From NCBI GenBank assembly GCA_016931935.1, contig JAFGDW010000237.1, forward strand, positions 35,745 to 99,744: a stretch of 64,000 nucleotides of DNA. The letters are read 5' to 3'. A model generated the notes under the pieces. It did not search any database. It was given only the letters and a program-made list of their open reading frames with translations, and was not told the DNA's origin. The translations under genes were made by a program, and so were the position numbers. The DNA comes from Candidatus Zhuqueibacterota bacterium (GTDB lineage: Bacteria > Zhuqueibacterota > Zhuqueibacteria > Thermofontimicrobiales > Thiofontviventaceae). Each line of letters begins with the position of its first letter. Position 1 is the first letter of the stretch. Positions 2,736 through 52,661 of the stretch are shown here, piece after piece.

Positions 2736-2784
2736 TTTAAATAATGTTAGCCATCAGACACAAAGGTACGAAGAATACGTAAAT

Positions 2785-3813: not shown

Positions 3814-5007
3814 ATGGAAAAAATTTACGATATTACTGTCGCTGGTCACATCTGCCTGGATATTATTCCTGAATTTCCTGACACTGGTATACGGGAAATC
3901 AGTGCATTATTCAAACCCGGAAAGTTAATACGAGTCGAAGGCGCAAAAATAAGTACCGGTGGACCTGTATCGAATACAGGTATTGCACTTTCAAAATTAG
4001 GATTAAACGTCGCTTTTATGGCGCGAGTTGGTGATGATTATTTCGGTAAGTTAGTCATTGATTTGCTCAATCGTCAGGGGTATGCGGCAGGGATTTCGAT
4101 TGCCCAAAGTAATCGTACATCATATTCGGTGGCGATTGCGCCTCCGGGGATTGACCGGATTTTTCTACACGATTCCGGTGCTAACGATTTTTTTTCCAGC
4201 GCAAATTTAAATGAAGAAATTATTCATCAATCAAAAATATTCCATTTCGGCTATCCACCGATTATGGCAACATGTTATGAAAATGAAGGGGCAGAACTGT
4301 TTCAAATTTTCAAGATTGCGAAGTCTGCCGGTGTGGTCACGTCATTGGATATGGCGCTACCCGATCCCAACAGTGACAGCGGCAAAACGTCATGGCAGAA
4401 AATTCTGACAAAGGTGCTGCCATACGTTGATATTTTTTTACCGAGTATCGAAGAAGTCTATTTTATGCTTGATCAGCAAAAGTATTTTGAAATAAAAGAA
4501 CAGGCGGGTGATTCCGATATTATCGAATTTATTCATCCCAATGACTATCAGCGATTGGCGCAAAAGTGTTTGGATATGGGATGCAAAATTGTAGCGTTAA
4601 AAACAGCGTACCGTGGCTACTACATATTAACAAATAAAATTACCAGTAATGACATTCCGGTGCTCTCCGATTCTAAAAATTGGTCATACCGGGAACTTTG
4701 GTGTCCGGCGTTCCGGGTAGAACGAATCGCAAGTGCTACAGGATCTGGAGATTCATCAATTGCCGGCTTTTTAGCAGCGTTAGTTAAAGGATATCCTGTT
4801 GAAAAAGTACTGAAGTATGCCAATTGCGTGGGACATCAAAACCTGCATGAACTGGATGCCGTCAGTGGTATTAAAAACTGGGAGGAAACAACAGCCAGCC
4901 TGGAACAAAACAAATTGGAAATGATTGATATGCCGCTGGAAAAATTCGGTTGGCAATTGAACAACGATTTCAAAGTTTGGACAAGTTCGCGAAATAAACA
5001 TTTTTGA
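3814..5007 (+). CDS. PfkB-family carbohydrate kinase (ribokinase/fructokinase-like) with C-terminal extension
   Basis: It carries the N-terminal GG motif region (STGGPVSNTGIAL…) and a C-terminal anion-hole/ATP motif (SATGSGDSSIAGFLAAL). Confidence 0.8.
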   Translation: MEKIYDITVAGHICLDIIPEFPDTGIREISALFKPGKLIRVEGAKISTGGPVSNTGIALSKLGLNVAFMARVGDDYFGKLVIDLLNRQGYAAGISIAQSNRTSYSVAIAPPGIDRIFLHDSGANDFFSSANLNEEIIHQSKIFHFGYPPIMATCYENEGAELFQIFKIAKSAGVVTSLDMALPDPNSDSGKTSWQKILTKVLPYVDIFLPSIEEVYFMLDQQKYFEIKEQAGDSDIIEFIHPNDYQRLAQKCLDMGCKIVALKTAYRGYYILTNKITSNDIPVLSDSKNWSYRELWCPAFRVERIASATGSGDSSIAGFLAALVKGYPVEKVLKYANCVGHQNLHELDAVSGIKNWEETTASLEQNKLEMIDMPLEKFGWQLNNDFKVWTSSRNKHF

Positions 5008-6152: not shown

Positions 6153-7430
6153 ATGAAATTCAGAATGCTAATAATTCTAATGACGCTGTTTCTCTGCTGT
6201 GCAAAAAAGGATGATGTTCAAAAAGTTCAGTTCTGGGCGTTTGGCGGGATGCCAAATTATATGCAATGGACAAAAGACATGGTTACGAAATTCAATGCAG
6301 CCCATCCTGATATTAAAGTTATCCAAAGTCAAAAAAGCTGGCATATGATACGCGAGCTTTTATATACCAATTATAGCGCCGGCACTGGACCGGATGTGAT
6401 GCGGGTGCATGGAAATTACGCTGCTGAATTTGGTGAAGGCGGCTACTTTCTTCCGATTAACACGTTTCCGGATTTTGAAGAAGTAAAAAGGTGGTACTTG
6501 CCCATTTTATTTGAATCAACGCGTTATAAAGATAATTACTATGGATTGCCTGGCCCGTCCATTGCCTTCACGCTGGTATGTAATAAAAAATTGTTCGATG
6601 AAGCCGGTTTAACCTCACCGAAAACCTGGTCACAATTCAGGGAAGCTGCCCAAAAACTTACAAAGGATACAAATGGCGATGGCATTGTCGATCAGCATGG
6701 TCTGGTGTTATTAGGCGGTGAGAAAGGCGGATTTAGCTATCGGCTGGCAGCATTCATGTATAAAGCCGGAGTGAACTTCTTATCGGACGATTTATCAAAT
6801 GCAATCTTTAATTCACCGGAGGCAGTGGCGACTGTCAAATTATTTGCCGATATGTACCAGGTCGATAAATCTATCACGCCTGGGTTCCTGGCCTACACAA
6901 TATCGGAAATTAATGATCTGTTTTGCAGTGATAAAGTAGCGATGAGCATCGAAGGACCGTGGTTTGCCACTTCGGTGAATGATAAATTGCCGGGTAAGCA
7001 ATTTTACACAGTGCCAGTGCCGGTGCCCGATGATAAAATTGATCAGTACGATACAGCACCAACACTTCAAGACATGGTGATGCTGTCAATAAGTGCAAAT
7101 GCCAAACATCCGGAGGCGGCATGGGAATTTGTGAAATTCATGCGCGGCAATGAAGCGGATATTATCTGGCTCAAACAAGAAATGGGTGGTTTTCCCACGA
7201 CGTTAAATGCGTTGAATAGTCCTGAATCTTCGGATTACACCGATTTTGCTGTGTATCGGCACGAACTTGAACATGCGCGACCCTGGCCGTCACATCCCAA
7301 AATGATTGCCATAGTACGGAATATCATTTCAATCTACGGCCAGAAAGCCATTGTTGGAGAATTAAGCCCACAGGAGGCGATGGATAAAGCGGTCGTTGAA
7401 GCACAAAATATGATTGATGAAAATAAATAG
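6153..7430 (+). CDS. ABC transporter substrate-binding lipoprotein (family-1 sugar/oligosaccharide-binding protein)
   Basis: AGGAGG lies 5 nt upstream. It has a lipoprotein signal (…LFLCCAKKDD) and family-1 solute-binding-protein length and composition. Confidence 0.8.
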   Translation: MKFRMLIILMTLFLCCAKKDDVQKVQFWAFGGMPNYMQWTKDMVTKFNAAHPDIKVIQSQKSWHMIRELLYTNYSAGTGPDVMRVHGNYAAEFGEGGYFLPINTFPDFEEVKRWYLPILFESTRYKDNYYGLPGPSIAFTLVCNKKLFDEAGLTSPKTWSQFREAAQKLTKDTNGDGIVDQHGLVLLGGEKGGFSYRLAAFMYKAGVNFLSDDLSNAIFNSPEAVATVKLFADMYQVDKSITPGFLAYTISEINDLFCSDKVAMSIEGPWFATSVNDKLPGKQFYTVPVPVPDDKIDQYDTAPTLQDMVMLSISANAKHPEAAWEFVKFMRGNEADIIWLKQEMGGFPTTLNALNSPESSDYTDFAVYRHELEHARPWPSHPKMIAIVRNIISIYGQKAIVGELSPQEAMDKAVVEAQNMIDENK

Positions 7431-7570: not shown

Positions 7571-10417
7571 ATGGAAAAAGTTTTTTTCAGCACCCGTTTA
7601 TTGTTCTGCTTCCTTTTTGCACTATCTCAAATTCAAGCGCAAGATAAGCAACCTTTGGATCACAGTGTCTATGATAACTGGAAAAATCTGAATGGCGCCA
7701 GTATTTCCAATAATGGCGAATACGTCTCGTTCGAAATTAATCCCCAGGATGGTGATGGCTGGTTGTATATTAAAAATCTATCCACCCAGAGCAGTGATTC
7801 CATTCGCAGGGGCTACAATGCAGCGTTTTCGCCACAATCGAATTTTATTGTATGTAATATCAAGGCGCCAAAAGACAGTACCCGCAATGCCAAACTTGCA
7901 AAAAAGAAGGATGATCAGCTTCCCAAAGATTCGTTGGGAATATGGTTACTTGAGAAAGATTCGCTGATAAAAGCGGCGAATTTAAAATCATATAAACTTT
8001 CCAAAGATACGTCTCCGTGGTTTGCTTATCATTTGGAAAAACAGGCGGAAAAAAAAGATACAGCAGAAGTTAAGGAAGAAGAAAAAATCAAAAGTGAGAA
8101 AAAGAGAACAGGCAAAAAGAAGGATGATGAAATAAAGACCGGTGATCTTTTTATATGTAATCCTGTCGCATCCAAAAAATATATATTTAATGATGTTTCG
8201 GATTATGCTGTGTCTGAAAATGGCGACCTGATAAGCTTTATTACAGCAAAAAGCGATTCAGTTGATTCCGCGGCGGTCTATGTTTTCAAACCCAGTATTG
8301 AACAGGCTGACAAAATTTTTGAAATGCAGGGACGCGCTAAAAATATTTCCGTTGATAAATTGGGACAGCAAGTCGCTTTTATTTCAACAACAGATACATC
8401 CAAAGCCAAAGTGTACAATTTGCTTTGCTGGATGACGAAATTAAATCAGGCAGAGATGATTATAGATACGCTCACACAAGGCATGCCGGGAAAATGGAGT
8501 GTGAGTGAACATGCCGGGATAACTTTTTCAGACGATTGTTCAAAACTCTATTTCAGAACAGCACCCAAACCGAAACCAGTTCCTAAAGACACGTTAACAG
8601 ATGATGATAAAGTAAAGGTGGATATCTGGAACTGGAAAGATACACGTTTGCAGTCGCAGCAATTAGTCGAGTGTGAAAACGATATGAAACGATCGTATCA
8701 GGCAATTTATCATATTCGGGAAAAAAGAATGGCGCAACTTGGCGATAACGTTGTCCATGACGTGACAATTTTAAAAGATAATCCCCGGATCGCTCTTGGT
8801 ATCGACACTAGGTCGTACGAAAAACTGATTTCCTGGGAATACCCTGAATACAGGGATGCATATGTAATTGATTGTAATAGTGGCGCAAATAAAATTATCC
8901 TTAAAAAGAAACAATTTGGCGTTTCTATTTCTCCATTCGGAAAATATGTGTTGTGGTTTGAAAATGCGGATAGTTTATGGTATGCATATTCCGTAAAAAA
9001 CAATCAGTACATACCTCTTACAAAAAATATCCCGGTTCAATTTTATAATGAGCAGCATGATGAACCTTGTCCGCCAACGCCTTATGGTATTGGCGGATGG
9101 GCAAAGAATGATGAATGTGTCATGATTTATGATCGTTTCGATATCTGGAAAATTGATCCCGAAGGCAGGAAAGCGCCGGTAAATCTCACACGAGCGTATG
9201 GGCGAAACCATAAGATCAGGCTGCGCGTGGTTGATCTGGATAAAGAACAAGAATATTTCGAATTAAAAGAGTCTTTGCTGTTGAGTGGTTTTAATGAAAC
9301 ATCCAAACAAGACGGATTTTATTCAACCCGATTGAGTTCAAAAAATGATCCCGCTATATTAATTGTAAAGGATAATCGGTTTGAACATGTGGTTAAGGCG
9401 AAACAGGCAAATAGACTCATTTGGACAAAAAGTTCGTTTATCGAATATCCTGATTTATGGGAAAGTAATCTGACATTTGAAAATCCTATCAGATTATCTG
9501 ATGCCAATCCGCAGCAACAGCATTATTTGTGGGGAAGTGTGGAGTTAATAAAGTGGAAAGATTATAACGGCAACGAGCTTGAAGGATTGGTGTATAAGCC
9601 GGAAAACTTCAATCCAAACAAAAAGTACCCGATGCTTGTGTATTTTTATGAGCGAAGTTCATTTATCAAATATTGGCATTTTGTTCCAAAGCCATCGCCT
9701 TCGACGATAAATTTTTCTTATTATGTTAGCAATGGCTATGTTGTTTTTGTTCCGGATATTGTTTACGGAACCGGCCACCCCGGCAACGATGCATATAACG
9801 CAGTCGTGAGTGGAACGATGAATTTGCTGAAAAGTGGCTATATTGATGAGAAGAAAATCGGTATACAGGGCCAAAGTTGGGGCGGATACCAGGTTGCATA
9901 TCTGGTCACTCGAACAAATCTGTATGCTGCAGCGATGGCCGGTGCACCGGTGAGTAACATGACCAGCGCTTATGGCGGCATCCGCTGGAAGAGCGGATTG
10001 AGTCGAATGTTTCAGTACGAACAAGACCAAAGCAGGATCGGTGCAAACCTATGGGAACGGCCAGAGCTCTATATTGAAAATTCCCCGGTATTTCATGCCC
10101 CGGAAGTTCAAACACCACTGCTGATTATGCATAATGATAACGATGGCGCTGTCCCCTGGTACCAGGGAATCGAATTATTCGTGGCATTACGTCGACTCAA
10201 TAAGCCAGTGTGGATGCTGACATATAACGGTGATGAGCACAATTTAAAACGGCGCGCCAATCAAAAAGATTTGAGTATTCGTATGCAACAGTTCTTTGAT
10301 CACTACTTAAAATATGCTCCTGCACCCGAGTGGATGGAGAACGGGATACCTGCAGTCGACAAAGGTGAAAAAATGGGATATGATTTGATAGAAGACACTG
10401 GTTTGGGTAGGAAATAA
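7571..10417 (+). CDS. S9 family serine peptidase (prolyl oligopeptidase / dipeptidyl-peptidase-like), secreted
   Basis: It has a signal peptide, an N-terminal beta-propeller-like region and a C-terminal alpha/beta hydrolase with GQSWGGYQ (GxSxGG). Downstream Asp and His motifs are NDNDGAVPW and DEHNL. Confidence 0.85.
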   Translation: MEKVFFSTRLLFCFLFALSQIQAQDKQPLDHSVYDNWKNLNGASISNNGEYVSFEINPQDGDGWLYIKNLSTQSSDSIRRGYNAAFSPQSNFIVCNIKAPKDSTRNAKLAKKKDDQLPKDSLGIWLLEKDSLIKAANLKSYKLSKDTSPWFAYHLEKQAEKKDTAEVKEEEKIKSEKKRTGKKKDDEIKTGDLFICNPVASKKYIFNDVSDYAVSENGDLISFITAKSDSVDSAAVYVFKPSIEQADKIFEMQGRAKNISVDKLGQQVAFISTTDTSKAKVYNLLCWMTKLNQAEMIIDTLTQGMPGKWSVSEHAGITFSDDCSKLYFRTAPKPKPVPKDTLTDDDKVKVDIWNWKDTRLQSQQLVECENDMKRSYQAIYHIREKRMAQLGDNVVHDVTILKDNPRIALGIDTRSYEKLISWEYPEYRDAYVIDCNSGANKIILKKKQFGVSISPFGKYVLWFENADSLWYAYSVKNNQYIPLTKNIPVQFYNEQHDEPCPPTPYGIGGWAKNDECVMIYDRFDIWKIDPEGRKAPVNLTRAYGRNHKIRLRVVDLDKEQEYFELKESLLLSGFNETSKQDGFYSTRLSSKNDPAILIVKDNRFEHVVKAKQANRLIWTKSSFIEYPDLWESNLTFENPIRLSDANPQQQHYLWGSVELIKWKDYNGNELEGLVYKPENFNPNKKYPMLVYFYERSSFIKYWHFVPKPSPSTINFSYYVSNGYVVFVPDIVYGTGHPGNDAYNAVVSGTMNLLKSGYIDEKKIGIQGQSWGGYQVAYLVTRTNLYAAAMAGAPVSNMTSAYGGIRWKSGLSRMFQYEQDQSRIGANLWERPELYIENSPVFHAPEVQTPLLIMHNDNDGAVPWYQGIELFVALRRLNKPVWMLTYNGDEHNLKRRANQKDLSIRMQQFFDHYLKYAPAPEWMENGIPAVDKGEKMGYDLIEDTGLGRK

Positions 10418-10580: not shown

Positions 10581-11525
10581 ATGAGTAGCACAGCTTTAAT
10601 TTTTCACATCCAGCGATTTTCAATCCATGATGGTCCGGGAATTCGGACGACGGTTTTTTTTAAAGGTTGTTCATTAAGTTGTTTTTGGTGTCATAATCCG
10701 GAAGGCCGGCATGCTTATTCAGAAATTCAATTCGTCGCCTCCAATTGCATTGGCTGTGGTGAATGTGTCTACGTATGTGAGCATCATGCTCATCAGCTAA
10801 AAGATGGTGAACGATTTTACAGCCGTGCTCTCTGTGTAAATTGTGGTAAATGCGCCCAAAATTGTTTCTCCGGAACGCTTGAATTAATCGGCAAGCGAAT
10901 GACCGTGAAGCAGGTGATGGATGAAATACTCCGGGATAGCGCATTTTATGAATCATCGAATGGTGGTATTACGTTATCGGGTGGCGAGCCCTGTTTAAAA
11001 AGTGTATTCATCAGAACGCTGTTGGAACAATGTAAACAACAGAACATACATACAGCGCTTGAAACGTGTGGCAATTACAAATGGGATAAATTAAATTCAT
11101 TACTGCCGTTTACGGATTTGGTTATGATGGATATTAAATTAATGAATCCGGACAAGCACAAACAGGTGACCGGCGATTCTAACAAACGGATCATTACCAA
11201 TGCCCGACAACTGGTATTAACCGATAAACCGATTATTTTCCGCACGCCCATTGTCCCAACGGTTAATGACACGATTGAGGAATTTAGTGAGATTGTTGAC
11301 TTCATTGAAGAATTAATCGAATTACGCCTGAAACGGGGCAAAGCTTCAACAAATGATGCGAATATTCAACTGGAATTGCTGCCGTTTCATCAACTGGCAT
11401 CGGATAAGTACAAACATTTGGGACAGGACTACAAGGCAGCGCAACTGATCCCGCCGGCCAGTGAAAAGATGCATGAACTGGCTGAAATTGCTAAAAAGCA
11501 CGCAATTGATGTGAAAGTAAGGTGA
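10581..11525 (+). CDS. Glycyl-radical enzyme activating enzyme (radical SAM) with inserted two-cluster ferredoxin-like domain
   Basis: It has HDGPGIRTTVFFKGCSLSCFWCHNPE (CX3CX2C radical SAM) plus CIGCGECVYVCEHHA and CVNCGKCAQNC. This insertion is characteristic of non-PFL-type activases. Confidence 0.9.
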   Translation: MSSTALIFHIQRFSIHDGPGIRTTVFFKGCSLSCFWCHNPEGRHAYSEIQFVASNCIGCGECVYVCEHHAHQLKDGERFYSRALCVNCGKCAQNCFSGTLELIGKRMTVKQVMDEILRDSAFYESSNGGITLSGGEPCLKSVFIRTLLEQCKQQNIHTALETCGNYKWDKLNSLLPFTDLVMMDIKLMNPDKHKQVTGDSNKRIITNARQLVLTDKPIIFRTPIVPTVNDTIEEFSEIVDFIEELIELRLKRGKASTNDANIQLELLPFHQLASDKYKHLGQDYKAAQLIPPASEKMHELAEIAKKHAIDVKVR

Positions 11526-11544
11526 TCGTGAATTTGCTAAGACC

Positions 11545-11577
11545 ACCGATGCTATCGCTCGAAGCGCTGGCATCGGT
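11545..11577 (+). other. Branched hairpin with outer stem ACCGATGC/GCATCGGT enclosing a CGCTcgaAGCG mini-palindrome, between activase and GRE genes
   Basis: I read it directly from the sequence. The outer stem is identical to that of the hairpin at 15762-15796. Confidence 0.45.
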
Positions 11578-11618
11578 ACCTGGAAGCAAATAAACTTTAT
11601 TCATCTTAAAAATGAGAA

Positions 11619-13853
11619 ATGACTATGGAAAACAATACATACACATACCAACAGCGCATCGATGCACTACGCGCCACGAAACTGAAACATACGCAGGAAA
11701 AATGGGATTATATCGGAGTGTTAGATTATGACGATTACGCGCTCATCCTTCCCCCGGTTGAATATAGAGAGAAAAAGCATTTGGTCAGCGCCTCCGGCCT
11801 GGAAATAACAGATGTGTTGTATACGAAATTTGTACCGAAAACGAACCATCCCGGCGGTGGATTTTTTGGCGCGCGCATCTGTGGCGAGAATTTTGGAAAG
11901 ATGCTGGAAATACATCCTGTTTATATTGATCCCTTCAGTTCGTTAGCCGGATCATTTATGATGATTTTGCTATCATATCGCGATCCGTATTGGAATCCTG
12001 ATTTCAACTTTTCTCATTTGGAAAACGAACATAAAAAATATAAAATTACATTGCATGGAATTGGAGCAGCTCAACATTTTTGCCATGATATGACAATCGG
12101 TTTTGAACTTGGCTGGAAAGGCATTCTCGACAAGATTCGCCATTATCGCACACTAAACACCGATGAAGAGGCAACCGAATTATACGATGGCCTGGAAGAT
12201 ATAGTATCGGGATTCCAAAACTGGATCGGACGCCATGCTGTTGCAGCCCGGGAAATGGCGGCCGCGGAAAAGAATCGGTTACTAAAACAAAATCTGTTGG
12301 AGATTGCTGAAATTAACGAGAAGCTGGTTTCCGAACCCCCAACCACATTTCGGGAAGCCTGCCAATGGATGCTGTGGTACCAGATAGCAGGCAAAATGTA
12401 TAACGCAGGCGGCTCGCTTGGCAGAATCGATCAGTTTCTGCTTCCATTCTATGAACGCGATATTACTGCCGGAATCCTTACGGATGAAGAAGCTATTTTT
12501 CATATCGCGTGTCATTTCATTCATGATACAAGTTACATTCAACTGGGCGGGCCCGATGAAAACGGACATGATGCTACAAATAAATTGTCCTATCTTGTGC
12601 TTGAAGCTGCGCACCGGTTAAAAATTCCCATGAATGTAGGTGTCTGTGTCGGAGAGAAACTGGATACTCAATTGTTAAGGCGTGGTGTTGAAATTTTGTT
12701 TGAGGACAAAACCGGGATTCCAAAATTTCTTGGTATTGATGTAACAAGCAAGGATTTTACGAAAAACGGTTATCCGATTGAATTGGGACGAGACCGTGTA
12801 TATTGCGGCTGCAACTGGCATGCAATACCCGGACGGGAATATACAATGAATGATTGTGTTAAACTAAACCTTGGCGTCGTTTTTGAAGTTGCCTTCTATG
12901 ACATGATGGATGATAAGAATACCCATCCATCCGTCGCTGAATTATGGAAACGCTACGAATACCATATGTCGCGCGCTGTTGATATTATTGCGCAGAGTAT
13001 GGATTTTCATCTCGATCACATGTTTCAAGTATTCCCGGAACTCCATCTGGATTTGTTATGTCACGGCCCAATTGAAAGAGGGCGAGATGCATCACATGGC
13101 GGTGTTGAATTTTATAATCTGGGTTTGGATGCCGCAGGGCTGGCCACTGTCGCTGATTCATTTGCTGCGCTTGAGCAGCGTATCGAAATTGAAAAGCGTT
13201 TGACCTGGCAGGAATTAACGGATTACTTGAAGTCGGATTGGGCGGGCACCGATGGCGAGCGCGCCCGGCTAATGATGAAGAAAGCGCCTAAATTTGGCAG
13301 CGGCGGCAGTCTGGCCGATGATTACGCAATACGGGTATCACGTTTATTTACGAATTATGTCATCGAACATCCGACACCCAAAGGTTTCAAAATTCTTCCG
13401 GGTATCTTTTCGTGGGCGCTCACGGTTCAATTGGGAAAAGATGTAGGCGCAACACCCAATGGACGTCACGCCTACGCTTCAATTACACACGGCCCGAATC
13501 CCGAGCCTGGCTTTCGCAAAGATAGCGCGCCATCCGCATTGGCAGTGGCGGTCGCAAAAGTGCAACCAGGCTACGGCAACACTGCCCCAATGCAAATCGA
13601 ATTGGATCCCGGCCTTTCCAGAGATGAAGAAAACATTGAAAAATTAATGAGTCTGATAAAAACCCATTTCGAGTTGGGTGGCACACAAATTAATATGAAT
13701 ATTTTGGACAAGCAGAAAATAGTGGAAGCGCATGAAGATCCATCTCGACATCCGGATTTAGTGGTGCGTGTTACAGGATTCAGCGCCTATTTTGCCAGCC
13801 TGTCACCGGAACTGAGGCAGGTGGTGGTGGACAGGATAGTAACAAGTGAGTAA
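11619..13853 (+). CDS. Glycyl radical enzyme (PFL-fold), divergent; non-canonical Cys loop
   Basis: It carries the C-terminal glycyl radical motif RVTGFSAYF. It also has ATPNGR and REACQWMLWYQ…GGSLGRIDQF motifs that align with PFL landmarks. The Cys loop reads VYCGCNWH where PFL has CC and eliminases have GC[VI]E. Confidence 0.85.
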   Translation: MTMENNTYTYQQRIDALRATKLKHTQEKWDYIGVLDYDDYALILPPVEYREKKHLVSASGLEITDVLYTKFVPKTNHPGGGFFGARICGENFGKMLEIHPVYIDPFSSLAGSFMMILLSYRDPYWNPDFNFSHLENEHKKYKITLHGIGAAQHFCHDMTIGFELGWKGILDKIRHYRTLNTDEEATELYDGLEDIVSGFQNWIGRHAVAAREMAAAEKNRLLKQNLLEIAEINEKLVSEPPTTFREACQWMLWYQIAGKMYNAGGSLGRIDQFLLPFYERDITAGILTDEEAIFHIACHFIHDTSYIQLGGPDENGHDATNKLSYLVLEAAHRLKIPMNVGVCVGEKLDTQLLRRGVEILFEDKTGIPKFLGIDVTSKDFTKNGYPIELGRDRVYCGCNWHAIPGREYTMNDCVKLNLGVVFEVAFYDMMDDKNTHPSVAELWKRYEYHMSRAVDIIAQSMDFHLDHMFQVFPELHLDLLCHGPIERGRDASHGGVEFYNLGLDAAGLATVADSFAALEQRIEIEKRLTWQELTDYLKSDWAGTDGERARLMMKKAPKFGSGGSLADDYAIRVSRLFTNYVIEHPTPKGFKILPGIFSWALTVQLGKDVGATPNGRHAYASITHGPNPEPGFRKDSAPSALAVAVAKVQPGYGNTAPMQIELDPGLSRDEENIEKLMSLIKTHFELGGTQINMNILDKQKIVEAHEDPSRHPDLVVRVTGFSAYFASLSPELRQVVVDRIVTSE

Positions 13854-14064: not shown

Positions 14065-14934
14065 ATGAAAAAGTATACACCATACATACTGCTCTTTCCG
14101 GCATTGGCGCTCACCATTTTTGTGCTTGTTTATCCACTCATCCAAAATCTGATCAACAGTTTTATGGATGTGAGCTTAATTAAAGGATGTAAGGGATGGA
14201 ACGGTTTTCGGAATTATTTTAACATAATTCATGATGGTGTGTTCTGGCTTGCGTTCAAAAATACATGCATATATGCGGTATTGGGTACCATTCTATCGTT
14301 GATAACAGGACTTGGAATCGCATTATTGCTCAATCAGGAACTTGGGAAAATAAACAGTGTGTTGAAGTTTTTGTACACGATTCCCTGGGTGATTTCACCA
14401 GTGGTTGCCGGATTTGCCTGGAAATGGTTACTCAACGATAACTTTGGTATCATCAATCATTGGTTGCAAAGCGCGGGTATAATTAAAGAAGGCATTACAT
14501 GGCTGGGAAGCGCGGACACAGCGCTGATATGCGTGATTCTAGCCCGGGTTTGGCAATTTTACCCATTCGCCATGGTGATGTTTCTTGCCGGACTCCAGGC
14601 AATTCCACAGGAGCAATACGAGGCCGCATCCATTGATGGCGCGAATTGCATCCGGAAATTTTTCCACATTACTTTGCCCAATTTAGGCTCGGTTATCAAC
14701 GTCCTGTTACTGCTGGGACTGATTTGGAGTTTTAACGATTTTAATATGGTGTTCGTTATGACTCGCGGGGGTCCCATTAACTCATCCATGGTGTTGCCGG
14801 TTTTGGTTCGCGAATATTCATTCGTGCACTTCGATCTTGGCAAAGGTTCGGCATTATCGATTTTAATTTTTAGCTTGCTACTCACCCTGTCATTCATTTA
14901 TCTGAAAGTAATTTCCCAGCGGGAAAGTATATGA
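14065..14934 (+). CDS. ABC transporter permease (MalF/UgpA-like, sugar)
   Basis: It has 6 TM helices and the EAA-loop region (…EAASIDGANCIRKFFHITLP…). Confidence 0.85.
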   Translation: MKKYTPYILLFPALALTIFVLVYPLIQNLINSFMDVSLIKGCKGWNGFRNYFNIIHDGVFWLAFKNTCIYAVLGTILSLITGLGIALLLNQELGKINSVLKFLYTIPWVISPVVAGFAWKWLLNDNFGIINHWLQSAGIIKEGITWLGSADTALICVILARVWQFYPFAMVMFLAGLQAIPQEQYEAASIDGANCIRKFFHITLPNLGSVINVLLLLGLIWSFNDFNMVFVMTRGGPINSSMVLPVLVREYSFVHFDLGKGSALSILIFSLLLTLSFIYLKVISQRESI

Positions 14935-15743
14935 GAAAGCTGCTGCTAAACATTATCACGTTCTCTCTGATTCTGATTATCCTCATTCCATTCTTTTGGA
15001 TGTTTTCCACTTCGCTAAAGCCATTGCCGGAAGTGAATAAAATACCACCACAGTGGACGTGCAAGGGTATGAGTTTCAAATCGTACTGCGATATGTTCAT
15101 GTATCTTCCGTTTACGACCTATGCTATAAACAGTTTTATCATTGCGCTGTCAACAACATTCCTGACACTTCTCATCGGGAGTCTGGCAGGTTTTGCATTT
15201 GCCCGTTGTCAGTTTAAGGGAAAAGAATTTATCCTGATCGTGTTCCTGCTTTCCCAAATGTTGCCTGGCGCATCGATTATCATTCCACTGTTTCAGCTAA
15301 TTCGCAAAGCTGGGATTTATGATACTCCTGTCGGCTTGATCCTTGTGCATACGTCAGTTTTACTGCCATTTGTAATTTGGCTACTGTATGGTTTCTTCAA
15401 AACAATACCCCAGGAAGTAGAAGACGCTGCGCTAATCGATGGCTGCTCCAAACTTGATGTCCTGCTGAAAGTACTGCTGCCGCTTTCTTTGCCAGGATTG
15501 GGGGCCACAGCTCTGTTTGCCTTTCTCGGCTCATGGAATGAATTTTTCTTTGCATTAATTCTTACAGAATCTGATACATCACGAACTATACCGGTGGGAA
15601 TCGGACTTTTTGTTGGCGAATATCGCGACGTATGGAATCAGATGTCCGCAGCCGCTGTTCTTTTCAGCATTCCACCATTGGTGCTGTTTTTAATGCTACA
15701 AAAAACGTTTGTGAAAGGATTGACAGCAGGGGCATTAAAATAG
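14931..15743 (+). CDS. ABC transporter permease (MalG/UgpE-like, sugar)
   Basis: Its start overlaps the previous stop by 4 bp. It has the EAA motif (…EDAALIDGCSKLDVLLKVLLP…). Confidence 0.85.
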   Translation: MRKLLLNIITFSLILIILIPFFWMFSTSLKPLPEVNKIPPQWTCKGMSFKSYCDMFMYLPFTTYAINSFIIALSTTFLTLLIGSLAGFAFARCQFKGKEFILIVFLLSQMLPGASIIIPLFQLIRKAGIYDTPVGLILVHTSVLLPFVIWLLYGFFKTIPQEVEDAALIDGCSKLDVLLKVLLPLSLPGLGATALFAFLGSWNEFFFALILTESDTSRTIPVGIGLFVGEYRDVWNQMSAAAVLFSIPPLVLFLMLQKTFVKGLTAGALK

Positions 15744-15837: not shown

Positions 15838-16518
15838 ATGAACCGTTCGGAGATTAATCAGCTTCAACGGGAAGCTGTGGAATTTTTCAAACAACAAAAA
15901 TTTTATCTCCCCCACTGGCTCTATTGGCAAAAACACGATTGGTTGAAAAATAAAAAAAATACAACGGAAATTATCGAGAATAAACTTGGCTGGGATTTAA
16001 CGGATTTTGGTTCAGGATATTTTTATCAACAAGGTTTACTTTTAATCACATTGCGAAACGGAAAACCGGGCGTTAAATCCGGGAAAAATTATGCTGAAAA
16101 AATAATGATTGTCCGTGAGAATCAGGTAACGCCCTGGCATTTTCATTGGAGTAAAATGGAAGACATTATCAATCGCGGCGGCGGTAATCTGGTGATCGAA
16201 TTGTGCAATTCAACAGCAGATGAAACACTTGCGGATACTCAAGTTTCCGTGCAGATTGATGGCATTACTCACACTGTTGATGCGTATGGTACAATTGTGC
16301 TTAAACCGGGTGAAAGCATTACATTTCCGTCGTATTTATATCATCAGTTTTATGGCGAAACCGGCAAGGGTCAGGTGCTTGTTGGTGAAGTATCCCAGGT
16401 GAATGATGATGAACGTGATAATCGTTTTCTAAATCCGGTTGGACGATTTCCTGAAATAATTGAAGACGAAGCGCCATTGTACTACTTGTGCAATGAATAT
16501 CCGGTATCGACAGTTTAA
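15838..16518 (+). CDS. Cupin-type D-lyxose/D-mannose ketol-isomerase (YdaE-like)
   Basis: It is about 226 aa. The cupin core contains …VTPWHFHWSKMEDIINRGGG…YHQFYGE…, resembling the D-lyxose isomerase family. Confidence 0.55.
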   Translation: MNRSEINQLQREAVEFFKQQKFYLPHWLYWQKHDWLKNKKNTTEIIENKLGWDLTDFGSGYFYQQGLLLITLRNGKPGVKSGKNYAEKIMIVRENQVTPWHFHWSKMEDIINRGGGNLVIELCNSTADETLADTQVSVQIDGITHTVDAYGTIVLKPGESITFPSYLYHQFYGETGKGQVLVGEVSQVNDDERDNRFLNPVGRFPEIIEDEAPLYYLCNEYPVSTV

Positions 16519-16539: not shown

Positions 16540-17158
16540 CCGTCACGACAGGTCGCGGACGATTTATATTTCGGTTTTGCCACCGGATGGGAAGATATTT
16601 GTTGCAAAAACGAACCGTTGGTTCCCATGGATTTTTTCAAGAGTGTGGTCGTACCGCGTTATAGACGAATTCGTGTCCGTCCCGAAATGGTTCGAAATCA
16701 TCTTGATTGCAAGTTAAATATTTAAATTATATAAGAAAGTATGACAAGCTGGAAGCTTATCGTACTTTACCGGACAGACACGAATTAGCATGAAACTTCA
16801 CACTGCCGGAATTGACAAATGGTATACCGGTTGCAATTGCGATGTCCGGCTGCTGTTGCCGCATTTCCTGGAAGCCGGTATTAATTGCCTGTTTCCGCAT
16901 GAAGTCAATAGTTGTATTCATCCCGCGCAGTTGCTAAATGAATACGGCAAAGACCTGAGAATAATGGGGGGTTTCGATAAATTGGAAATGATTAAGGGCA
17001 AAGAAGCGATTTAAAAATACATGGAAAGCCTGGCGCCATTGGTCGAGTGTGGGGGATATATTCCATTTTGCAACCACCGGTGCCCGCCGGATGTAAAGCC
17101 GGAGAATTTTTTGTATTATCTGAATTTGAAAGAGCAGATGTTCGGGGTAAAAATGTAA
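16540..17158 (+). pseudogene. Decayed third URO-D/MtaA-like paralog (N-terminal third missing, in-frame stops)
   Basis: Pieces in one frame (16460-16717, 16790-17014, 17021-17158) align with the C-terminal two-thirds of the 2-661 and 2785-3801 paralogs (…NRWFPWIFSRV… / …GGYIPFCNHRCPPDVKPENF…). They are interrupted by TAA at 16718 and 17012, and by TGA. Confidence 0.55.
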
Positions 17159-17203: not shown

Positions 17204-17980
17204 GTGAATATCAACACCGGAAAAACGATTCGGTTGAGCGATTTTATTCATCCAAAGGATAAACGCTGTTTAATGGTAGATACAACAATCACATCTACGC
17301 TGGGCGCAATCACAGGATTGGAAGATTTCGGTACTGTACTGAAAAGTATTAATGAGTTGGTGGATGGAATAATAATTAATCCGGGACAACTTGAACATCA
17401 GGCGGAGCAACTCGGCGGCAAACGTCGCGCAACTCCGATTGTGCGCGTCGACTGGACGAATGCCTATCGTCACAACGATTTCTGCCTGCCCGTTTCTAAT
17501 GTGAAACGATTGATGATTTCAAACGGCGATGACGCATTCCAGCTTGGCGCTTCTGCAGTAATCGCCAGTCTACTGCTGGGATTTAACGACGAGTTCGAAG
17601 CCAATAATATCAAGGAGCTTTCGCTATTGGCCAGAGAATGTCATCCGATTTCCATGCCTGTTATCATCGATATTCGCCCGATTGGTCCCAAAGTATCACT
17701 CGGTAATTTTAGTGAAAGTATTAAACTGGGAGTGTCGTTCATGCTGGAGCTTGGCGCTGATGCCTTAATTATTCCCACCTGCGATTCGGAGACATATCAA
17801 ACAATTGCCCGGTGGATAAGTGTGCCTGTACTGCTCAGACTAAACGAATTTCCGCCCGAAAGTAACATGAAGCAAATGTTTGACGCCGGTGTTGCCGGGA
17901 TCGTTTTAGCGGAAGATATTTTTGCTGTATCCGATTATGCACAAAAAATTGAAAATCTGAAAACAATCATACATCAGTAA
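17204..17980 (+). CDS. DhnA-type class I aldolase paralog (archaeal FBA / ADH-synthase / LsrF family), apparently lacking the Schiff-base lysine
   Basis: It has a GTG start with AAGGAG 8 nt upstream. It aligns along its length with the N-terminal domain of the next gene. It has …DTTITS… where the paralog has AADHG, and GADALIIPT where the paralog has GADALKIPY. Confidence 0.65.
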   Translation: MNINTGKTIRLSDFIHPKDKRCLMVDTTITSTLGAITGLEDFGTVLKSINELVDGIIINPGQLEHQAEQLGGKRRATPIVRVDWTNAYRHNDFCLPVSNVKRLMISNGDDAFQLGASAVIASLLLGFNDEFEANNIKELSLLARECHPISMPVIIDIRPIGPKVSLGNFSESIKLGVSFMLELGADALIIPTCDSETYQTIARWISVPVLLRLNEFPPESNMKQMFDAGVAGIVLAEDIFAVSDYAQKIENLKTIIHQ

Positions 17981-17989
17981 AGGAATACA

Positions 17990-19276
17990 ATGTCAGTATC
18001 AGCAGGTAAATCAGTCAGATTAAATCGGTTATTCAATCCGAAAGATGGCAAAGCTGTATGTGTGGCAGCAGATCATGGCTGGATGTCCGACCCGACTGCA
18101 AATGTCATGGAACTGGAGAGCATTTTACATAAAGTCGTGCAAGGTGGCGCGGATGGTATTCTCATCAGCTTCGGCACAGCGCTGCGGCTTGGCCACATTA
18201 TACAGGGGAAAAATTCACCGGCCATGTTGATCCGTGCCGATTGGATGAATTTGCCACGGTTAGGCGGCGCCAATGTTAGCAATATCCTGCCGGTTGTTAA
18301 TTTTAAAAAAATGGCAACTTCGTTTGCCAAAGATGCGCTGTTGGTTGGCGCATCGGCAATTACTATTTATTACTTTATTGGCTATAATGATGAATTTGAA
18401 ACCATAAATATAGAACAATCTGCAATGTTTGCCCGCGAATGCCGCAAAATTGGCTTGCCGTTAATCATAGAGCCGATGGCAATCGGTGGCATGGTTTCCG
18501 GTGTCAACATTGCTGAAATCTTGATTGCTTCAGCGCGTATTGCGGTGGAAATTGGCGCCGATGCCTTAAAGATACCCTACACCGGTGATGTCAAAACGTT
18601 CAAACTGTTAGTAGATCAATCGAGAGTCCCTGTGTTAGTTCTCGGTGGTGCAAAATCGGATGTGCCGCGCGATGCACTGGAACTGGTGGATGAAGCGTTG
18701 CAGGCAGGCGCTAGCGGCACTGTCTTCGGACGCAATGTCACCAAGGCCACAGATCCGCAAAAGATGGTTGCCGACCTGTGTGCTTTGGTTCATGAAAATA
18801 AATCGCTCGATGAAATTTTTGGAGAAACAAGCAAATCAGGTTACCGGCTGAAAGCCATTCCTGAAAATTGTACCGGCTGCCAATTATGTGAAATTGTCTG
18901 TACACAATTCCATGAAAAAAACTATGGCATAAAAAGCGCGCGAATTAAAATCCACGCAAAAGGAAGTGAACCGGCTTTCAAACCATCCGTTTGTACACTT
19001 TGCGGGAAATGTGTCAACGCATGTGAACCGGGCGCGCTGACAATAGGAGATAAAGGCTATCTTGTGCTTGATAAATCACGTTGCAACGGCTGCGCCCATT
19101 GTATGGTAGCCTGTCCGTTTGGCGTTATTACCATGAATGCGGAAACGAATACACCAATCTTTTGTGATTTGTGTTTGGGCGATCCGCAATGTGTAAAATG
19201 GTGCAAACGTGATGCGTTAACGTTGGTGAAACGAAAAGAAAATGATGTAGCTAACAAGCTTGGGAATGAGAATTAA
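17990..19276 (+). CDS. DhnA-type class I aldolase fused to C-terminal four-[4Fe-4S] ferredoxin domain (AorA/YdhY-like)
   Basis: The N-terminal domain has GKSVRLNRLFNPKDGKAV…AADHG…GADALKIPYTG…GGAKSD…GRNV. The C-terminal 150 aa carry CTGCQLCEIVC, CTLCGKCVNAC, CNGCAHCMVAC and CDLCLGDPQCVKWC. Confidence 0.8.
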   Translation: MSVSAGKSVRLNRLFNPKDGKAVCVAADHGWMSDPTANVMELESILHKVVQGGADGILISFGTALRLGHIIQGKNSPAMLIRADWMNLPRLGGANVSNILPVVNFKKMATSFAKDALLVGASAITIYYFIGYNDEFETINIEQSAMFARECRKIGLPLIIEPMAIGGMVSGVNIAEILIASARIAVEIGADALKIPYTGDVKTFKLLVDQSRVPVLVLGGAKSDVPRDALELVDEALQAGASGTVFGRNVTKATDPQKMVADLCALVHENKSLDEIFGETSKSGYRLKAIPENCTGCQLCEIVCTQFHEKNYGIKSARIKIHAKGSEPAFKPSVCTLCGKCVNACEPGALTIGDKGYLVLDKSRCNGCAHCMVACPFGVITMNAETNTPIFCDLCLGDPQCVKWCKRDALTLVKRKENDVANKLGNEN

Positions 19277-19370
19277 ATAACACCGTCTGTGTTCATGAAT
19301 ATCTCTTAATTATGATAACGTTACATAGGCCTGGCCGTGTGTTGATTATTAGTGAGCTTAAACTTTGTTT

Positions 19371-19417
19371 GACATCCCCCTGAATCCGCCTTTGAAAGGG
19401 CGGCAAAGGGGGATGTC
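19371..19417 (+). promoter_or_regulatory. Long bulged hairpin GACATCCCCC…GGGGGATGTC with inner CCGCCTTT-gaa-AGGGCGG stem, in the 226-bp spacer before AOR
   Basis: I read it directly from the sequence. There is no flanking U-tract on either strand. Confidence 0.35.
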
Positions 19418-19502
19418 AAAAGTTGAACAAGTTATTTAATTCAGAAATTTAAATAATTCATCATCAAAGATACTCTCTCTACAATTATAAGGAGCAACTT
19501 GC

Positions 19503-21311
19503 ATGTTACTTGAACAGCGAGGATATAAAAATAAAATTTTGTACGTTGATTTAACGACCGAAAAAATTTGGACAGAAACGCTTGATGAAAAAGTGATGCG
19601 ACTTCTGCTCGGAGGGAAAGGATTGGGCTCATGGCTCTTATACAAGCATATGAAACCCAAAATCGATCCACTCTCACCGGAAAACGTTCTCATCTTTGTC
19701 GTTGGTCCATTGACTGGTACAACGGCGCCAACTTCCAGCCGGTTTGGTATTGTTTCGAAAAGTCCGGCATCGCATACATTTCTTGATTCTTATTGCGGCG
19801 GTTTCTTCGGTCAAATGATCAAGTACGCCGGTTATGATGCAATCGTTATTAACGGCGCTGCAAATAGTCCAAAAGTCCTCGTCATTAATGATGATGACAT
19901 CAGCATCGACGATGGCAGTGAAGTCTGGAACAAAAATACACATGAATCTACCGAGTATCTGACATCAAAATATGGCGCTGATATGAAGACGGCCGTAATT
20001 GGCCCCCCGGGTGAGCGATGCGTGCCGATTGCGGGCATTTTTTGCGATGTGAGAACGCTTGGACGAGGCGGCGCCGGCGCTGTCATGGGTTCCAAAAAAT
20101 TGAAAGCGATAGCCATTAAAGGCAGCGGCACTGTTGAAATAACGAACCAGAAAGAATTTGAGAATGCTGTTTGGGTGACTCATCGAATGTTGCGTATGAG
20201 TTCGCAGGTAACTCGTCTATCGAACGATGGCACCGTGAATATTCTGGATTTGGTAAATGCATCCGGAGCCTTGCCCACGCGAAATTTTCAATCCGGTGAA
20301 TTTGAAGAAGCCGATAAACTGACCAGCAAGAACTGGAAAAAAGACTACTGGATAAAAAGCGCGGCTTGCTTCGGTTGCCCGATGGCCTGTACGAAAATAT
20401 CACGGTCGAAAAAACATGGTATCGTTCTGGATGGCCCTGAATATGAAACCATTTTTGCAATGGGCTCCAACTGCGGCGTGACCGATCATGAAGCGATTAT
20501 TTATGCCAATTATTTGTGCGATCTATATGGTATTGATACGATGAGCACCGGAGCTATTATTGCCTTTGTCATGGAACTGTATCAGAAAAAAATGATCTCC
20601 ACAGATGATTTGAGCGGCATTAAAGCGACGTGGGGGAGTGGCGATACACTAATACGCCTGACGGAAATAATTGCGACCGGTGAAGGTATCGGTGAACTGC
20701 TGAGCAAAGGCGTCAGAGAAATATCCAAACATTTTCCGGGCAGTGAAGAATTTTCGATGCATGTTAAAGGCCTGGAAATGCCTGGCTATCTTGCTCGCGC
20801 TGCCAAGGGGATCGGATTAAGCTACGCGATTTCTGAACGGGGGGCATGCCATTTGAAAGGCTCACCATTGACAGAAATTCTTGGCGGCGCTGATCCGTTA
20901 ACGGCTGACGGCAAAGCCGCCCTGTTCAAATCAAATCAGTTAGATGTTGCTGTTGTTGACTCAGCGATTTTATGCTACTTTGTAAAATTCGGCATCACAT
21001 TAAAAGAAATTTTTCAGATAATAAATCCATGCACCGGATTCGAATATAAAAACCCCAAAGAATTGGAAGAAGTGGGCGAACGAATAATTACACTGACCCG
21101 ATTGTTTAATACACGCGAAGGATTCTCCAAAAAGGATGATATCCTTCCCAAACGCTCGCTTGCAGAACCAATACCATCCGGCAATGCGAAGGGACATGTT
21201 GTTGAACTGGATACGCTGCGGTCAGAATATTATAATTTGATGGGATGGAATGACGACGGTATTCCCACTGAGGCTACCATTCAGAGATTGGCTTTAAACG
21301 ACATTTTGTAG
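19503..21311 (+). CDS. Aldehyde:ferredoxin oxidoreductase family (tungsten/molybdopterin AOR)
   Basis: AAGGAG lies upstream. It has the AOR N-terminal domain (KILYVDLTTEKIW…) and the EYETIFAMGSNCGV cluster-binding region. At 602 aa it is typical AOR length. Confidence 0.9.
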   Translation: MLLEQRGYKNKILYVDLTTEKIWTETLDEKVMRLLLGGKGLGSWLLYKHMKPKIDPLSPENVLIFVVGPLTGTTAPTSSRFGIVSKSPASHTFLDSYCGGFFGQMIKYAGYDAIVINGAANSPKVLVINDDDISIDDGSEVWNKNTHESTEYLTSKYGADMKTAVIGPPGERCVPIAGIFCDVRTLGRGGAGAVMGSKKLKAIAIKGSGTVEITNQKEFENAVWVTHRMLRMSSQVTRLSNDGTVNILDLVNASGALPTRNFQSGEFEEADKLTSKNWKKDYWIKSAACFGCPMACTKISRSKKHGIVLDGPEYETIFAMGSNCGVTDHEAIIYANYLCDLYGIDTMSTGAIIAFVMELYQKKMISTDDLSGIKATWGSGDTLIRLTEIIATGEGIGELLSKGVREISKHFPGSEEFSMHVKGLEMPGYLARAAKGIGLSYAISERGACHLKGSPLTEILGGADPLTADGKAALFKSNQLDVAVVDSAILCYFVKFGITLKEIFQIINPCTGFEYKNPKELEEVGERIITLTRLFNTREGFSKKDDILPKRSLAEPIPSGNAKGHVVELDTLRSEYYNLMGWNDDGIPTEATIQRLALNDIL

Positions 21312-27800: not shown

Positions 27801-27826
27801 ATTTTCTGAACAAGAAAGAATTAATC

Positions 27827-48332: not shown

Positions 48333-48409
<77 letters not shown>

Positions 48410-52636: not shown

Positions 52637-52661
52637 TGATTTGAATCAGCGGAGAATAAAA

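Follow-up and report, generated by a model that had tools for sequence, protein, structure and literature searches.

Glycyl radical enzymes (GREs) are grouped into seven classes in a review from June 2026 (PMC13450708). The characterised C–O eliminases, the C–N lyase CutC, the C–S lyases, and the isomerases all keep a Cys-x-Glu (C-x-E) sequence in the cysteine loop, and the Glu residue hydrogen-bonds or deprotonates a hydroxyl group of the substrate in the characterised enzymes (PMC13450708). Two loop cysteines are found only in pyruvate formate-lyase (PFL) and TdcE (PMC13450708). The isomerases include PflD and YbiW of E. coli, which are the C–O lyases acting on 1,5-anhydromannitol-6-phosphate and 1,5-anhydroglucitol-6-phosphate (PMC13450708). 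Here we describe a GRE gene carried by a stretch of 64,000 nucleotides, hereafter called the window, from a Candidatus Zhuqueibacterota bacterium (contig JAFGDW010000237.1, positions 35,745 to 99,744 of the forward strand). Sequence comparisons place its product in a coherent, uncharacterised, and monophyletic branch of PFL-like GREs in which the loop Glu is replaced by Trp (C-x-W), and whose genes recur in operons for sugar uptake. In the literature on GREs, URO-D proteins, sugars, and the host phyla, no paper was found on this clade or on the pairing with a URO-D-like protein that is described below.

An intact pair of activase and glycyl radical enzyme

For about 30 kb the genes of the window all point the same way, on the + strand, and among them is the gene for a GRE-activating radical S-adenosylmethionine (SAM) enzyme of 314 amino acids (10581–11525, + strand), followed by the gene for the GRE itself (11619–13853, + strand; 744 amino acids). 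The activase matches the Pfam domains Radical_SAM and Fer4 and reaches 337 bits against a cut-off of 174 with TIGR02494, the NCBIfam model for GRE activases with a ferredoxin insert. It scores under the cut-off for all substrate-specific NCBIfam activase models. Its translation contains the radical-SAM motif CX3CX2C (C30/C34/C37) and two ferredoxin-type CX2CX2CX3C motifs (C56–C66 and C85–C95), which are the two extra clusters described in an earlier note on this DNA.

The GRE matches the Pfam families PFL-like (PF02901, E = 1.6e-92) and Gly_radical (PF01228, E = 4.7e-14), values that exclude a chance match, and its barrel and C-terminal glycyl radical domain are those of the PFL-like superfamily (IPR004184). 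The glycyl radical motif R717-V-T-G720-F (13767–13781, + strand), in which G720 is the predicted radical site, is kept in 120 of the 120 closest homologs. Two further motifs, A611-T-P-N-G-R616 and G264-G-S-L-G-R-I-D-Q-F273, are evident in the translation, and all of the motifs that the earlier note had listed for this protein (RVTGF, ATPNGR, GGSLGRIDQF, VYCGCNWH, and VCVGEK) are present. The published glycyl radical fingerprint, RVxG[FWY]x6-8[FL]x4Qx2[IV]x2R (PMC13450708), fits the protein (R717-V-T-G-F...L728...V736..R739) except at the Gln position, which is occupied by R733 here and is altered throughout the family, with Q734 adjoining. Replacement of the radical-site Gly by Ala, Ser, or Thr, as in aminoacyl radical enzymes (AAREs), is not seen; G720 is kept. 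The paper on AAREs makes no mention of uroporphyrinogen, transporters, carbohydrates, or tryptophan. Both genes of the window are full length and form an intact pair. A protein identical to the GRE is recorded for a MAG (metagenome-assembled genome) of candidate division KSB1, and its public annotation is 'formate acetyltransferase'.

Tryptophan at the position of the loop glutamate

The cysteine loop of the GRE (C396-G-C398-N-W400-H; 12804–12821, + strand) reads V394-Y-C-G-C-N-W-H401 in the translation. HMMER alignments to E. coli PflD and to glycerol dehydratase (GDH) of C. butyricum are concordant in aligning C398 with the catalytic Cys (GDH C433), W400 with the Glu of C-x-E (GDH E435 and the PflD Glu), and D412 with GDH D447. 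On these alignments, the usual Gly-Cys is present and the missing element is the glutamate.

Comparison with homologs establishes which features of this loop belong to the family. C398 is invariant across all 93 aligned sequences, and G397, C398, and W400 are invariant in 24 homologs at 65–72% identity, in which position 396 is Ser and position 399 is His, each in at least 90%. The loop sequence is SGCHWC in 95 of the 120 closest homologs and SGCHWS in 12 of them; CGCNWH occurs once, in the protein of the window itself. Position 396 is Ser or Ala in 119 of these 120 sequences and position 399 is mostly His. Trp at Cys+2 is found in every one of the 24 clade representatives and of the 120 close homologs. 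As judged from these alignments, the family signature is [S/A]-G-C-[H/N/Q]-W, and the change that sets the family apart is the substitution of Trp for Glu at Cys+2. The earlier note had singled out a divergent Cys-Gly-Cys loop. Its view that the loop departs from C-x-E stands, with Trp in place of the Glu residue; the Cys-Gly-Cys arrangement is not a family feature, and a catalytic role for this dyad was rejected because it is peculiar to one sequence among 120 homologs. Also rejected was a second candidate Cys loop, V342-C-V-G-E-K347, which sits 55 residues ahead of C398. This segment is not conserved (the family consensus is VGVSVGxxVD) and does not align with the Cys loop.

Ten positions are conserved in the clade and rare elsewhere, namely P100, W166, P241, W400, P404, E407, Y408, D412, E474, and P657. 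Basic residues are absent from this clade-specific set, which consists of prolines and of aromatic or acidic residues. Such an aromatic and acidic pattern lacking basic residues is typical of sites that bind uncharged sugars. In the alignment, E407, Y408, and D412 lie on the strand after the Cys loop, which is the location of GDH D447. In addition, the basic residues that are common to the phosphosugar enzymes PflD and YbiW and rare in other GREs are deleted or replaced in the window GRE, as judged by a heuristic comparison in which the true phosphate ligands are not identified. From these patterns of conservation, the substrate of the GRE is probably uncharged.

A separate clade without a characterised member

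A search with the GRE protein against 1.84 billion representatives clustered at 50% identity yielded matches in three shells, comprising a close family at 40–55% identity over the full length, a second group at 24–34% identity, and generic GREs below this. The loop column was read in 89 full-length representatives of the 50% clusters plus the query (90 in total), of which 24 carry C-x-W. The close family and the second shell are entirely C-x-W, where x is His, Asn, Gln, Phe, Gly, or Pro, and almost all of the remaining representatives are C-x-E. The C-x-W sequences have a loop that is two residues shorter before GRxDQ and are about 680–775 amino acids long, with one exception of 1052. Phylogenetic placement, which the earlier note had called for, used a neighbour-joining (NJ) tree with capped distances to which E. 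coli PflD and YbiW were added, with PflB as the outgroup. In this tree all 24 C-x-W sequences group together to the exclusion of every other sequence (bootstrap 78/80), and within this clade the close family is recovered in 80 of 80 replicates.

No curated model or solved structure was found that covers the C-x-W sequences. The query shares no more than 30% identity with any representative outside the C-x-W group (PflD 26%, YbiW 24%, PflB 21%), and its best solved relative is about 26% identical. All NCBIfam equivalog models score far below their cut-offs, including those for PflD-type enzymes (237 versus 1109 bits), HypD (NF043068; 214 versus 1100), CutC (191 versus 1050), HpsG (223 versus 1000), and PFL (TIGR01255; 92 versus 994), and the subfamily model TIGR01774 gives 274 against a cut-off of 678. 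The view that the protein matches none of the characterised Cys-loop chemistries is borne out.

The window GRE shares with E. coli PflD and YbiW the GRE fold, the Gly loop, the register of the catalytic Cys, an activase with a ferredoxin insert, and a carbohydrate context that includes a transporter. It differs from them in sequence (24–26% identity), in the C-x-W loop with its two-residue shortening, in the N-terminal region of about 145 residues, in the absence of their common basic residues, in an association with ATP-binding cassette (ABC) import rather than their phosphotransferase system (PTS), and in the MtaA-like partner protein that is found in GRE relatives. With the GRE 1,2-eliminases (glycerol and propanediol dehydratases, CutC, HypD, and IslA/IseG/HpsG) it has in common the fold, the Gly-Cys loop, D412 at the position of GDH D447, and an activase of the TIGR02494 type. 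However, these enzymes have Glu (PMC13450708) where the window clade has an invariant Trp, they lie outside the clade, and their equivalog models reach 15–25% of the cut-off with the window GRE. A Foldseek search with the AlphaFold model of the GRE returned the generic GRE fold, with a TM-score of about 0.7 to many GRE structures and no discrimination between classes. The resemblance to PFL and TdcE extends to the PFL-like and Gly_radical domains and the name given in the public annotation. Unlike these enzymes, the window GRE lacks adjacent cysteines, and its activase carries the extra ferredoxin insert and best matches non-PFL activase models.

Relatives are widespread among uncultured anaerobes. 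In a collection with one genome per GTDB species there are 221 hits, and the best 80 of these 221 loci are all from metagenome-assembled genomes (MAGs). The host bins comprise Bacteroidota and Ignavibacteria, KSB1, Opitutaceae, Anaerolineae and other Chloroflexota, Armatimonadota, Latescibacterota, and one member of Bathyarchaeia, and the habitats of the clade are peat, sediments, soils, and digesters. A large clade has exchanged for Trp a Glu residue that is otherwise universal in characterised GREs cleaving C–O, C–N, or C–S bonds, while keeping the radical machinery. This exchange points to a different route of elimination, or to a different reaction altogether. Labels such as 'formate acetyltransferase' or 'pyruvate formate-lyase' on these genes would mislead metabolic reconstructions of MAGs.

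A conserved sugar-transport cassette

The genomic context was compared across 86 related loci from genomes and metagenomes, whose open reading frames (ORFs) were clustered together with those of the window to give 87 sources. Counts for close relatives refer to loci with enough flanking DNA in which the GRE is at least 63.5% identical. Of the 33 close-relative loci that extend far enough upstream, 29 encode an activase homolog, and a URO-D-family protein of about 365 amino acids is encoded directly downstream of the GRE in 27 of 30. A sugar ABC substrate-binding protein (SBP) is found in 29 of 30, each of two permeases in 27 of 30, and a fusion of a PfkB kinase with a HAD domain (about 630 amino acids) in 11 of the 22 loci with at least 8 kb of downstream sequence. 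The conserved cassette hence consists of the activase, the GRE, an MtaA-like protein of the URO-D fold, the SBP, two permeases, and often the PfkB-HAD kinase, and the link of the GRE to sugar import, to sugar kinases, and in close relatives to the MtaA-like protein is a conserved one. This agrees with one suggestion of the earlier note, that the substrate is a transported sugar derivative. The finding is more general than the note held: the Glu-to-Trp change extends across the clade and goes with a conserved sugar-operon context. Two of the conserved partners, the MtaA-like protein and the PfkB-HAD kinase, were absent from its account.

In the window itself, the SBP is of the CUT1 type (6153–7430, + strand; SBP_bac_1), and the two permeases (14065–14934 and 14931–15743, + strand; BPD_transp_1, UgpA/MalG/GlcU-like) are encoded by ORFs that overlap by 4 nt. 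No ABC ATPase is present among the annotated ORFs of at least 150 amino acids at window positions 1–32000. As previously noted, the activase and GRE genes sit between the permeases and a gene for a 948-residue protein with a C-terminal Peptidase_S9 alpha/beta-hydrolase domain (7571–10417, + strand; Pfam; BD-FAE-like), which in turn follows the SBP gene. This S9-domain gene forms a singleton cluster among the 87 sources and is lineage-specific rather than a conserved partner. The PfkB-HAD fusion of the window (632 amino acids; 30011–31909, + strand; Pfam; RfaE-domain-I-like) is displaced to 16 kb downstream. It belongs to cluster 17, which is present in 18 of the 87 sources including the window, and its best match in the Protein Data Bank (PDB) is the heptose-7-phosphate kinase 4e84 (RfaE/HldA-related). 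The HAD part of this protein is phosphatase- or mutase-like.

More distant relatives vary in their surroundings. In one locus (L087), whose C-x-W GRE is 30% identical, a sugar ABC system is accompanied by two URO-D genes and by genes for an activase and a SIS protein. Another locus with a distant C-x-W GRE (L089) has beta-helix proteins and a sugar ABC system with no URO-D neighbour, and three further distant C-x-W representatives (P0147, P0149, and P0164) lie on short contigs that show little of their surroundings. For the most part the relatives in Chloroflexota have neither URO-D nor ABC genes nearby and are accompanied by genes for FGGY or fructosamine-type kinases and by enolase-superfamily, DapA-type, GH20-like, and GH116 genes, where GH denotes glycoside hydrolase families. 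In these relatives the same GRE family thus occurs in another setting, distinct from that of the cassette. Given the link of the clade to sugar uptake in uncultured anaerobes, the substrate is likely to be an environmentally relevant carbohydrate with an undescribed anaerobic fate.

An MtaA-like partner protein

The URO-D-like protein of the relatives belongs to a small family with 557 detectable homologs, all of them unnamed. It gives weak matches to MtaA and CmuA (E of about 1e-9, far below the cut-off), and its profile finds nothing better than E = 0.014 among PDB sequences. An AlphaFold model of this protein has a predicted local distance difference test (pLDDT) score of 88.9, and Foldseek ranks the methylcobalamin:coenzyme M methyltransferase MtaA (4ay7) first, then uroporphyrinogen decarboxylases, and then MetE. 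Invariant residues include H162-P-H164, H254-x-C256-G, E277, C301, K303, H335, and D341. The H-x-C-G motif is presumably that of the zinc methyltransferases MtaA and MetE, and we take the wider H-x-C...E...C pattern to resemble their zinc site. The partner is MtaA-like in fold and, from the motif, probably zinc-binding. It shares the URO-D-type TIM-barrel fold with the MtaA/UroD superfamily, and is unlike its solved members in its low identity to any of them (13–17%) and in its placement in sugar operons with no corrinoid protein nearby. Neither a corrinoid protein, nor a pterin-binding methyltransferase, nor a corrinoid activase was found in the Pfam-annotated neighbourhoods.

The association was also examined in the reverse direction. 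Among 80 metagenome loci fetched by means of the URO-D-like protein, the GRE lies directly upstream in 37 of the 47 that include upstream sequence. The exceptions are the most divergent copies of the URO-D-like protein, which occur in other sugar contexts with GatZ-like, GH4, enolase-superfamily, and SIS genes. This near-obligate pairing defines a two-gene unit and brings a second unstudied enzyme into view.

A tblastn search of the window found no true ortholog of the partner, only distant paralogs and a fragment. The first paralog (2–661, + strand) is the C-terminal part of a URO-D-family protein that is cut by the window edge. It contains the motif H-L-C-G and shares 37% identity with the URO-D gene next to the GRE in L087. 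The second (2701–3801, + strand; 366 amino acids) has D-S-D (D-S-D-G) in place of the H-x-C motif and no matches in a PDB sequence search; it is probably not zinc-binding, if the H-x-C-G motif binds zinc in the relatives. The fragment (16781–17158, + strand) corresponds to the C-terminal third only, is interrupted by an in-frame stop at 17012–17014, and is most like the divergent URO-D paralogs of the window. Because it is located between the genes for a lyxose isomerase and an aldolase, a URO-D-family gene has decayed inside the cluster.

A further gene between the two paralogs (930–2735, + strand) encodes an unannotated protein of 601 amino acids with no Pfam or NCBIfam match and nothing above noise in a PDB sequence search. 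Another KSB1 MAG (L015) encodes a 35%-identical homolog directly upstream of its GRE (7700–9199). That locus has the same URO-D paralogs upstream yet keeps the canonical URO-D-like partner. The 601-residue protein is a recurring partner candidate in KSB1.

Proposed function and alternatives

Given their location in sugar-uptake operons, the C-x-W GREs probably act on a carbohydrate. With roughly even confidence, we propose that the window GRE provides the radical reaction in a catabolic pathway for a carbohydrate derivative, which the flanking CUT1 ABC transporter imports. What we infer for this pathway is the class of substrate, the cleavage of a C–O bond, and the parts played by W400, E407, D412, and E474. 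The activase would use SAM to place a radical on G720, from which the radical would move to C398, and the resulting thiyl radical would take a hydrogen atom from a sugar C–H bond. W400, at the position of the substrate-binding Glu of eliminases and isomerases, may pack on the sugar ring. D412, the equivalent of GDH D447, together with the clade-specific E407 and E474, may hold or deprotonate the hydroxyl groups in place of the missing Glu. The substrate radical would then rearrange, most plausibly through C–O cleavage to yield a deoxy-keto sugar, and regain hydrogen from C398. Presumably, the kinases (PfkB and PfkB-HAD) would pass the product to central metabolism, with the help here of a run of genes for a DhnA-type aldolase, an aldolase-ferredoxin fusion, and an aldehyde:ferredoxin oxidoreductase (17204–21311, + strand), which are lineage-specific. 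The MtaA-like protein of most close relatives, being encoded immediately downstream of the GRE, must share a pathway with it if this scheme holds.

Several observations weigh against this proposal. The Glu residue that deprotonates a hydroxyl group in all characterised GREs cleaving C–O, C–N, or C–S bonds is missing, and a ketyl-type elimination therefore needs a relocated base. The neutrality of the substrate is read from patterns of conservation rather than from a structure, and the AlphaFold model of the GRE, which was made from 24 close homologs, has a pLDDT of 68 overall and below 50 over residues 396–409. The phylogeny is an NJ tree on corrected p-distances rather than a maximum likelihood tree. 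Directly after the window GRE, the URO-D-like partner that is near-universal in close relatives is missing. With this neighbour absent and the loop atypical (C396, N399, and H401), the window copy could have a shifted or reduced function. Finally, among 26 loci of Chloroflexota relatives only two have a URO-D-like gene and only two an SBP gene, and because their gene contexts differ, the family may not have one single substrate.

A bolder and rather unlikely reading is that the C-x-W enzymes constitute a new functional class of GREs, which would perform undescribed radical chemistry on uncharged carbohydrates and would be obligately paired with a new zinc enzyme of an MtaA-like TIM-barrel type. 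Examples of such chemistry would be the oxygen-free cleavage of sugar methyl ethers or other ethers, or a new ring-opening or rearrangement reaction, with the Trp loop and a relocated acid or base. If true, this would define an unrecognised anaerobic sugar pathway in bacteria of peat, sediment, soil, and digesters from at least eight phyla.

Cleavage of a sugar methyl ether or another ether can also be considered as a function in its own right, and we regard it as improbable. In this scheme the GRE would abstract a hydrogen atom and the MtaA-like zinc protein would handle the methyl or C1 group or carry out a methyl transfer. The nearest fold to that of the partner is the methyltransferase MtaA, the H-x-C...E...C pattern is kept, and the matches to MtaA and CmuA, weak as they are, point in the same direction. 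O-, S-, and halogen-demethylases are among the members of the UroD superfamily (PMC10418091). Carbohydrate esterase-like genes are also found near some C-x-W GREs, among them CE15 genes and the S9/BD-FAE-like gene of the window. The removal of methyl groups from sugars is described as energetically demanding and as being solved by a cytochrome P450 monooxygenase (PMC6292453), to which the GRE system would be the oxygen-free counterpart. However, the neighbourhoods lack the corrinoid-related proteins listed above, the zinc ligands are assigned by motif, the window GRE has no adjacent URO-D-like partner, and the locus L089 demonstrates that a C-x-W GRE can occur without a URO-D neighbour.

Somewhat more improbable is an unphosphorylated version of the PflD/YbiW 'anhydroglycolysis', in which an imported anhydro-sugar (1,5-anhydroglucitol, 1,5-anhydromannitol, or another such as levoglucosan) would be ring-opened to a deoxy-ketose that is subsequently phosphorylated and cleaved by an aldolase. 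The chemistry of PflD and YbiW and its aldolase follow-up have been described (PMC13450708), and PflD is the best solved sequence match to the window GRE (2e-60). Two PfkB-type kinases, two DhnA-type aldolases, and a cupin-type D-lyxose/D-mannose isomerase (15838–16518, + strand) occur in the same co-directional cluster. A substrate taken up by an ABC transporter instead of a PTS would arrive unphosphorylated, in keeping with the lack of conserved basic residues. The loop is the chief difficulty, as PflD, YbiW, and HplG keep C-x-E and its Glu is assigned the deprotonation (PMC13450708), whereas Trp is present here. Moreover, the identity to PflD does not exceed that to other eliminases and the fold search is equally undiscriminating, the aldolases and isomerase are not conserved neighbours, and the URO-D-like partner is left without a role.

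A radical decarboxylation of the Kolbe type, for example of D-mannuronate to D-lyxose, would convert a uronic acid or another sugar acid to a pentose for the subsequent action of an isomerase and a kinase. This is very unlikely and the chemistry is our own speculation, although GRE decarboxylases are an established class (PMC13450708). The D-lyxose/D-mannose isomerase gene adjoins the permeases in the window, FGGY kinase, enolase-superfamily, and DapA-type genes lie beside the Chloroflexota relatives, and the superfamily of the partner is named after a decarboxylase. Against these points, there is no Arg or Lys for a carboxylate among the clade-specific residues, the lyxose isomerase is found in only two of the 87 sources, and the partner is no less similar to MtaA than to UROD.

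The two remaining functions are disfavoured. The earlier note had raised a hydroxyproline- or proline-related substrate by reference to the adjacent S9 peptidase gene, a pyrroline-5-carboxylate (P5C) dehydrogenase gene, and tRNA-Pro, and the best equivalog-type match of the activase is indeed to the HypD activase model (330 bits versus a cut-off of 425). This idea now seems scarcely credible: the GRE is far below the cut-off of the HypD model and has no C-x-E, the S9-domain gene has no cluster mate in the 86 related loci, and the conserved neighbours are sugar-transport genes and kinases. Furthermore, the tRNA-Pro gene (48333–48408) and the Aldedh-family gene (48535–50166) are more than 34 kb from the GRE, with an opposite-strand histidine kinase gene lying between them and the GRE cluster. 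An equally remote prospect is the cleavage of a C–C bond in pyruvate or another 2-ketoacid by C396 and C398 in the manner of PFL, which would suit the public annotation and the two loop cysteines of the window sequence and is contradicted by the poor TIGR01255 score, the 21% identity to E. coli PflB, and the need of PFL for adjacent cysteines (PMC13450708), given that Gly intervenes here and position 396 is almost always Ser or Ala in the homologs.

Other features of the window and of related loci

Additional genes of the cluster are related to carbohydrates and specific to the lineage. A PfkB-family sugar kinase (3814–5007, + strand; Pfam and NCBIfam) lies upstream of the SBP gene in such a context. 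The second of the two DhnA-type aldolases (17990–19276, + strand) is a class I enzyme with a C-terminal domain of the two-[4Fe-4S] ferredoxin type, which is an unusual fusion, and the gene for the aldehyde:ferredoxin oxidoreductase (19503–21311, + strand) follows immediately. This organisation suggests a direct coupling between aldol cleavage and the ferredoxin-dependent oxidation of an aldehyde. Further downstream are GH-like genes and a sodium:solute symporter gene. The symporter-family ORF (25695–27800, + strand) overlaps by 109 nt with an ORF of the GSU2086 family (27692–28858, + strand), whose start was probably called too early.

In four Chloroflexota loci (L040, L045, L060, and L069), the genes that accompany the GRE encode a fructosamine-kinase-like kinase, an MBL-fold protein, and DUF362; some of these loci also carry MFS, GH20-like, and GH116 genes. 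No activase was detected in these four loci by ORF clustering. L060 and three further Chloroflexota loci have an enolase-superfamily gene immediately upstream of the GRE.

In two of the first six loci examined (L002 and L003), an ArsP_1-type permease is encoded upstream of the GRE and less than 10 kb from the cassette, accompanied in L002 by ArsR-like, thioredoxin, and DsbD-like genes. Its proximity to the cassette is probably coincidental. Lastly, the far end of the window (52641–62003, + strand) encodes a protein of 3120 amino acids with at least 15 Ig-like repeats of the HYDIN/ASH/Cep192 type, a Laminin_G_3 domain, and a C-terminal sorting domain for type IX secretion.

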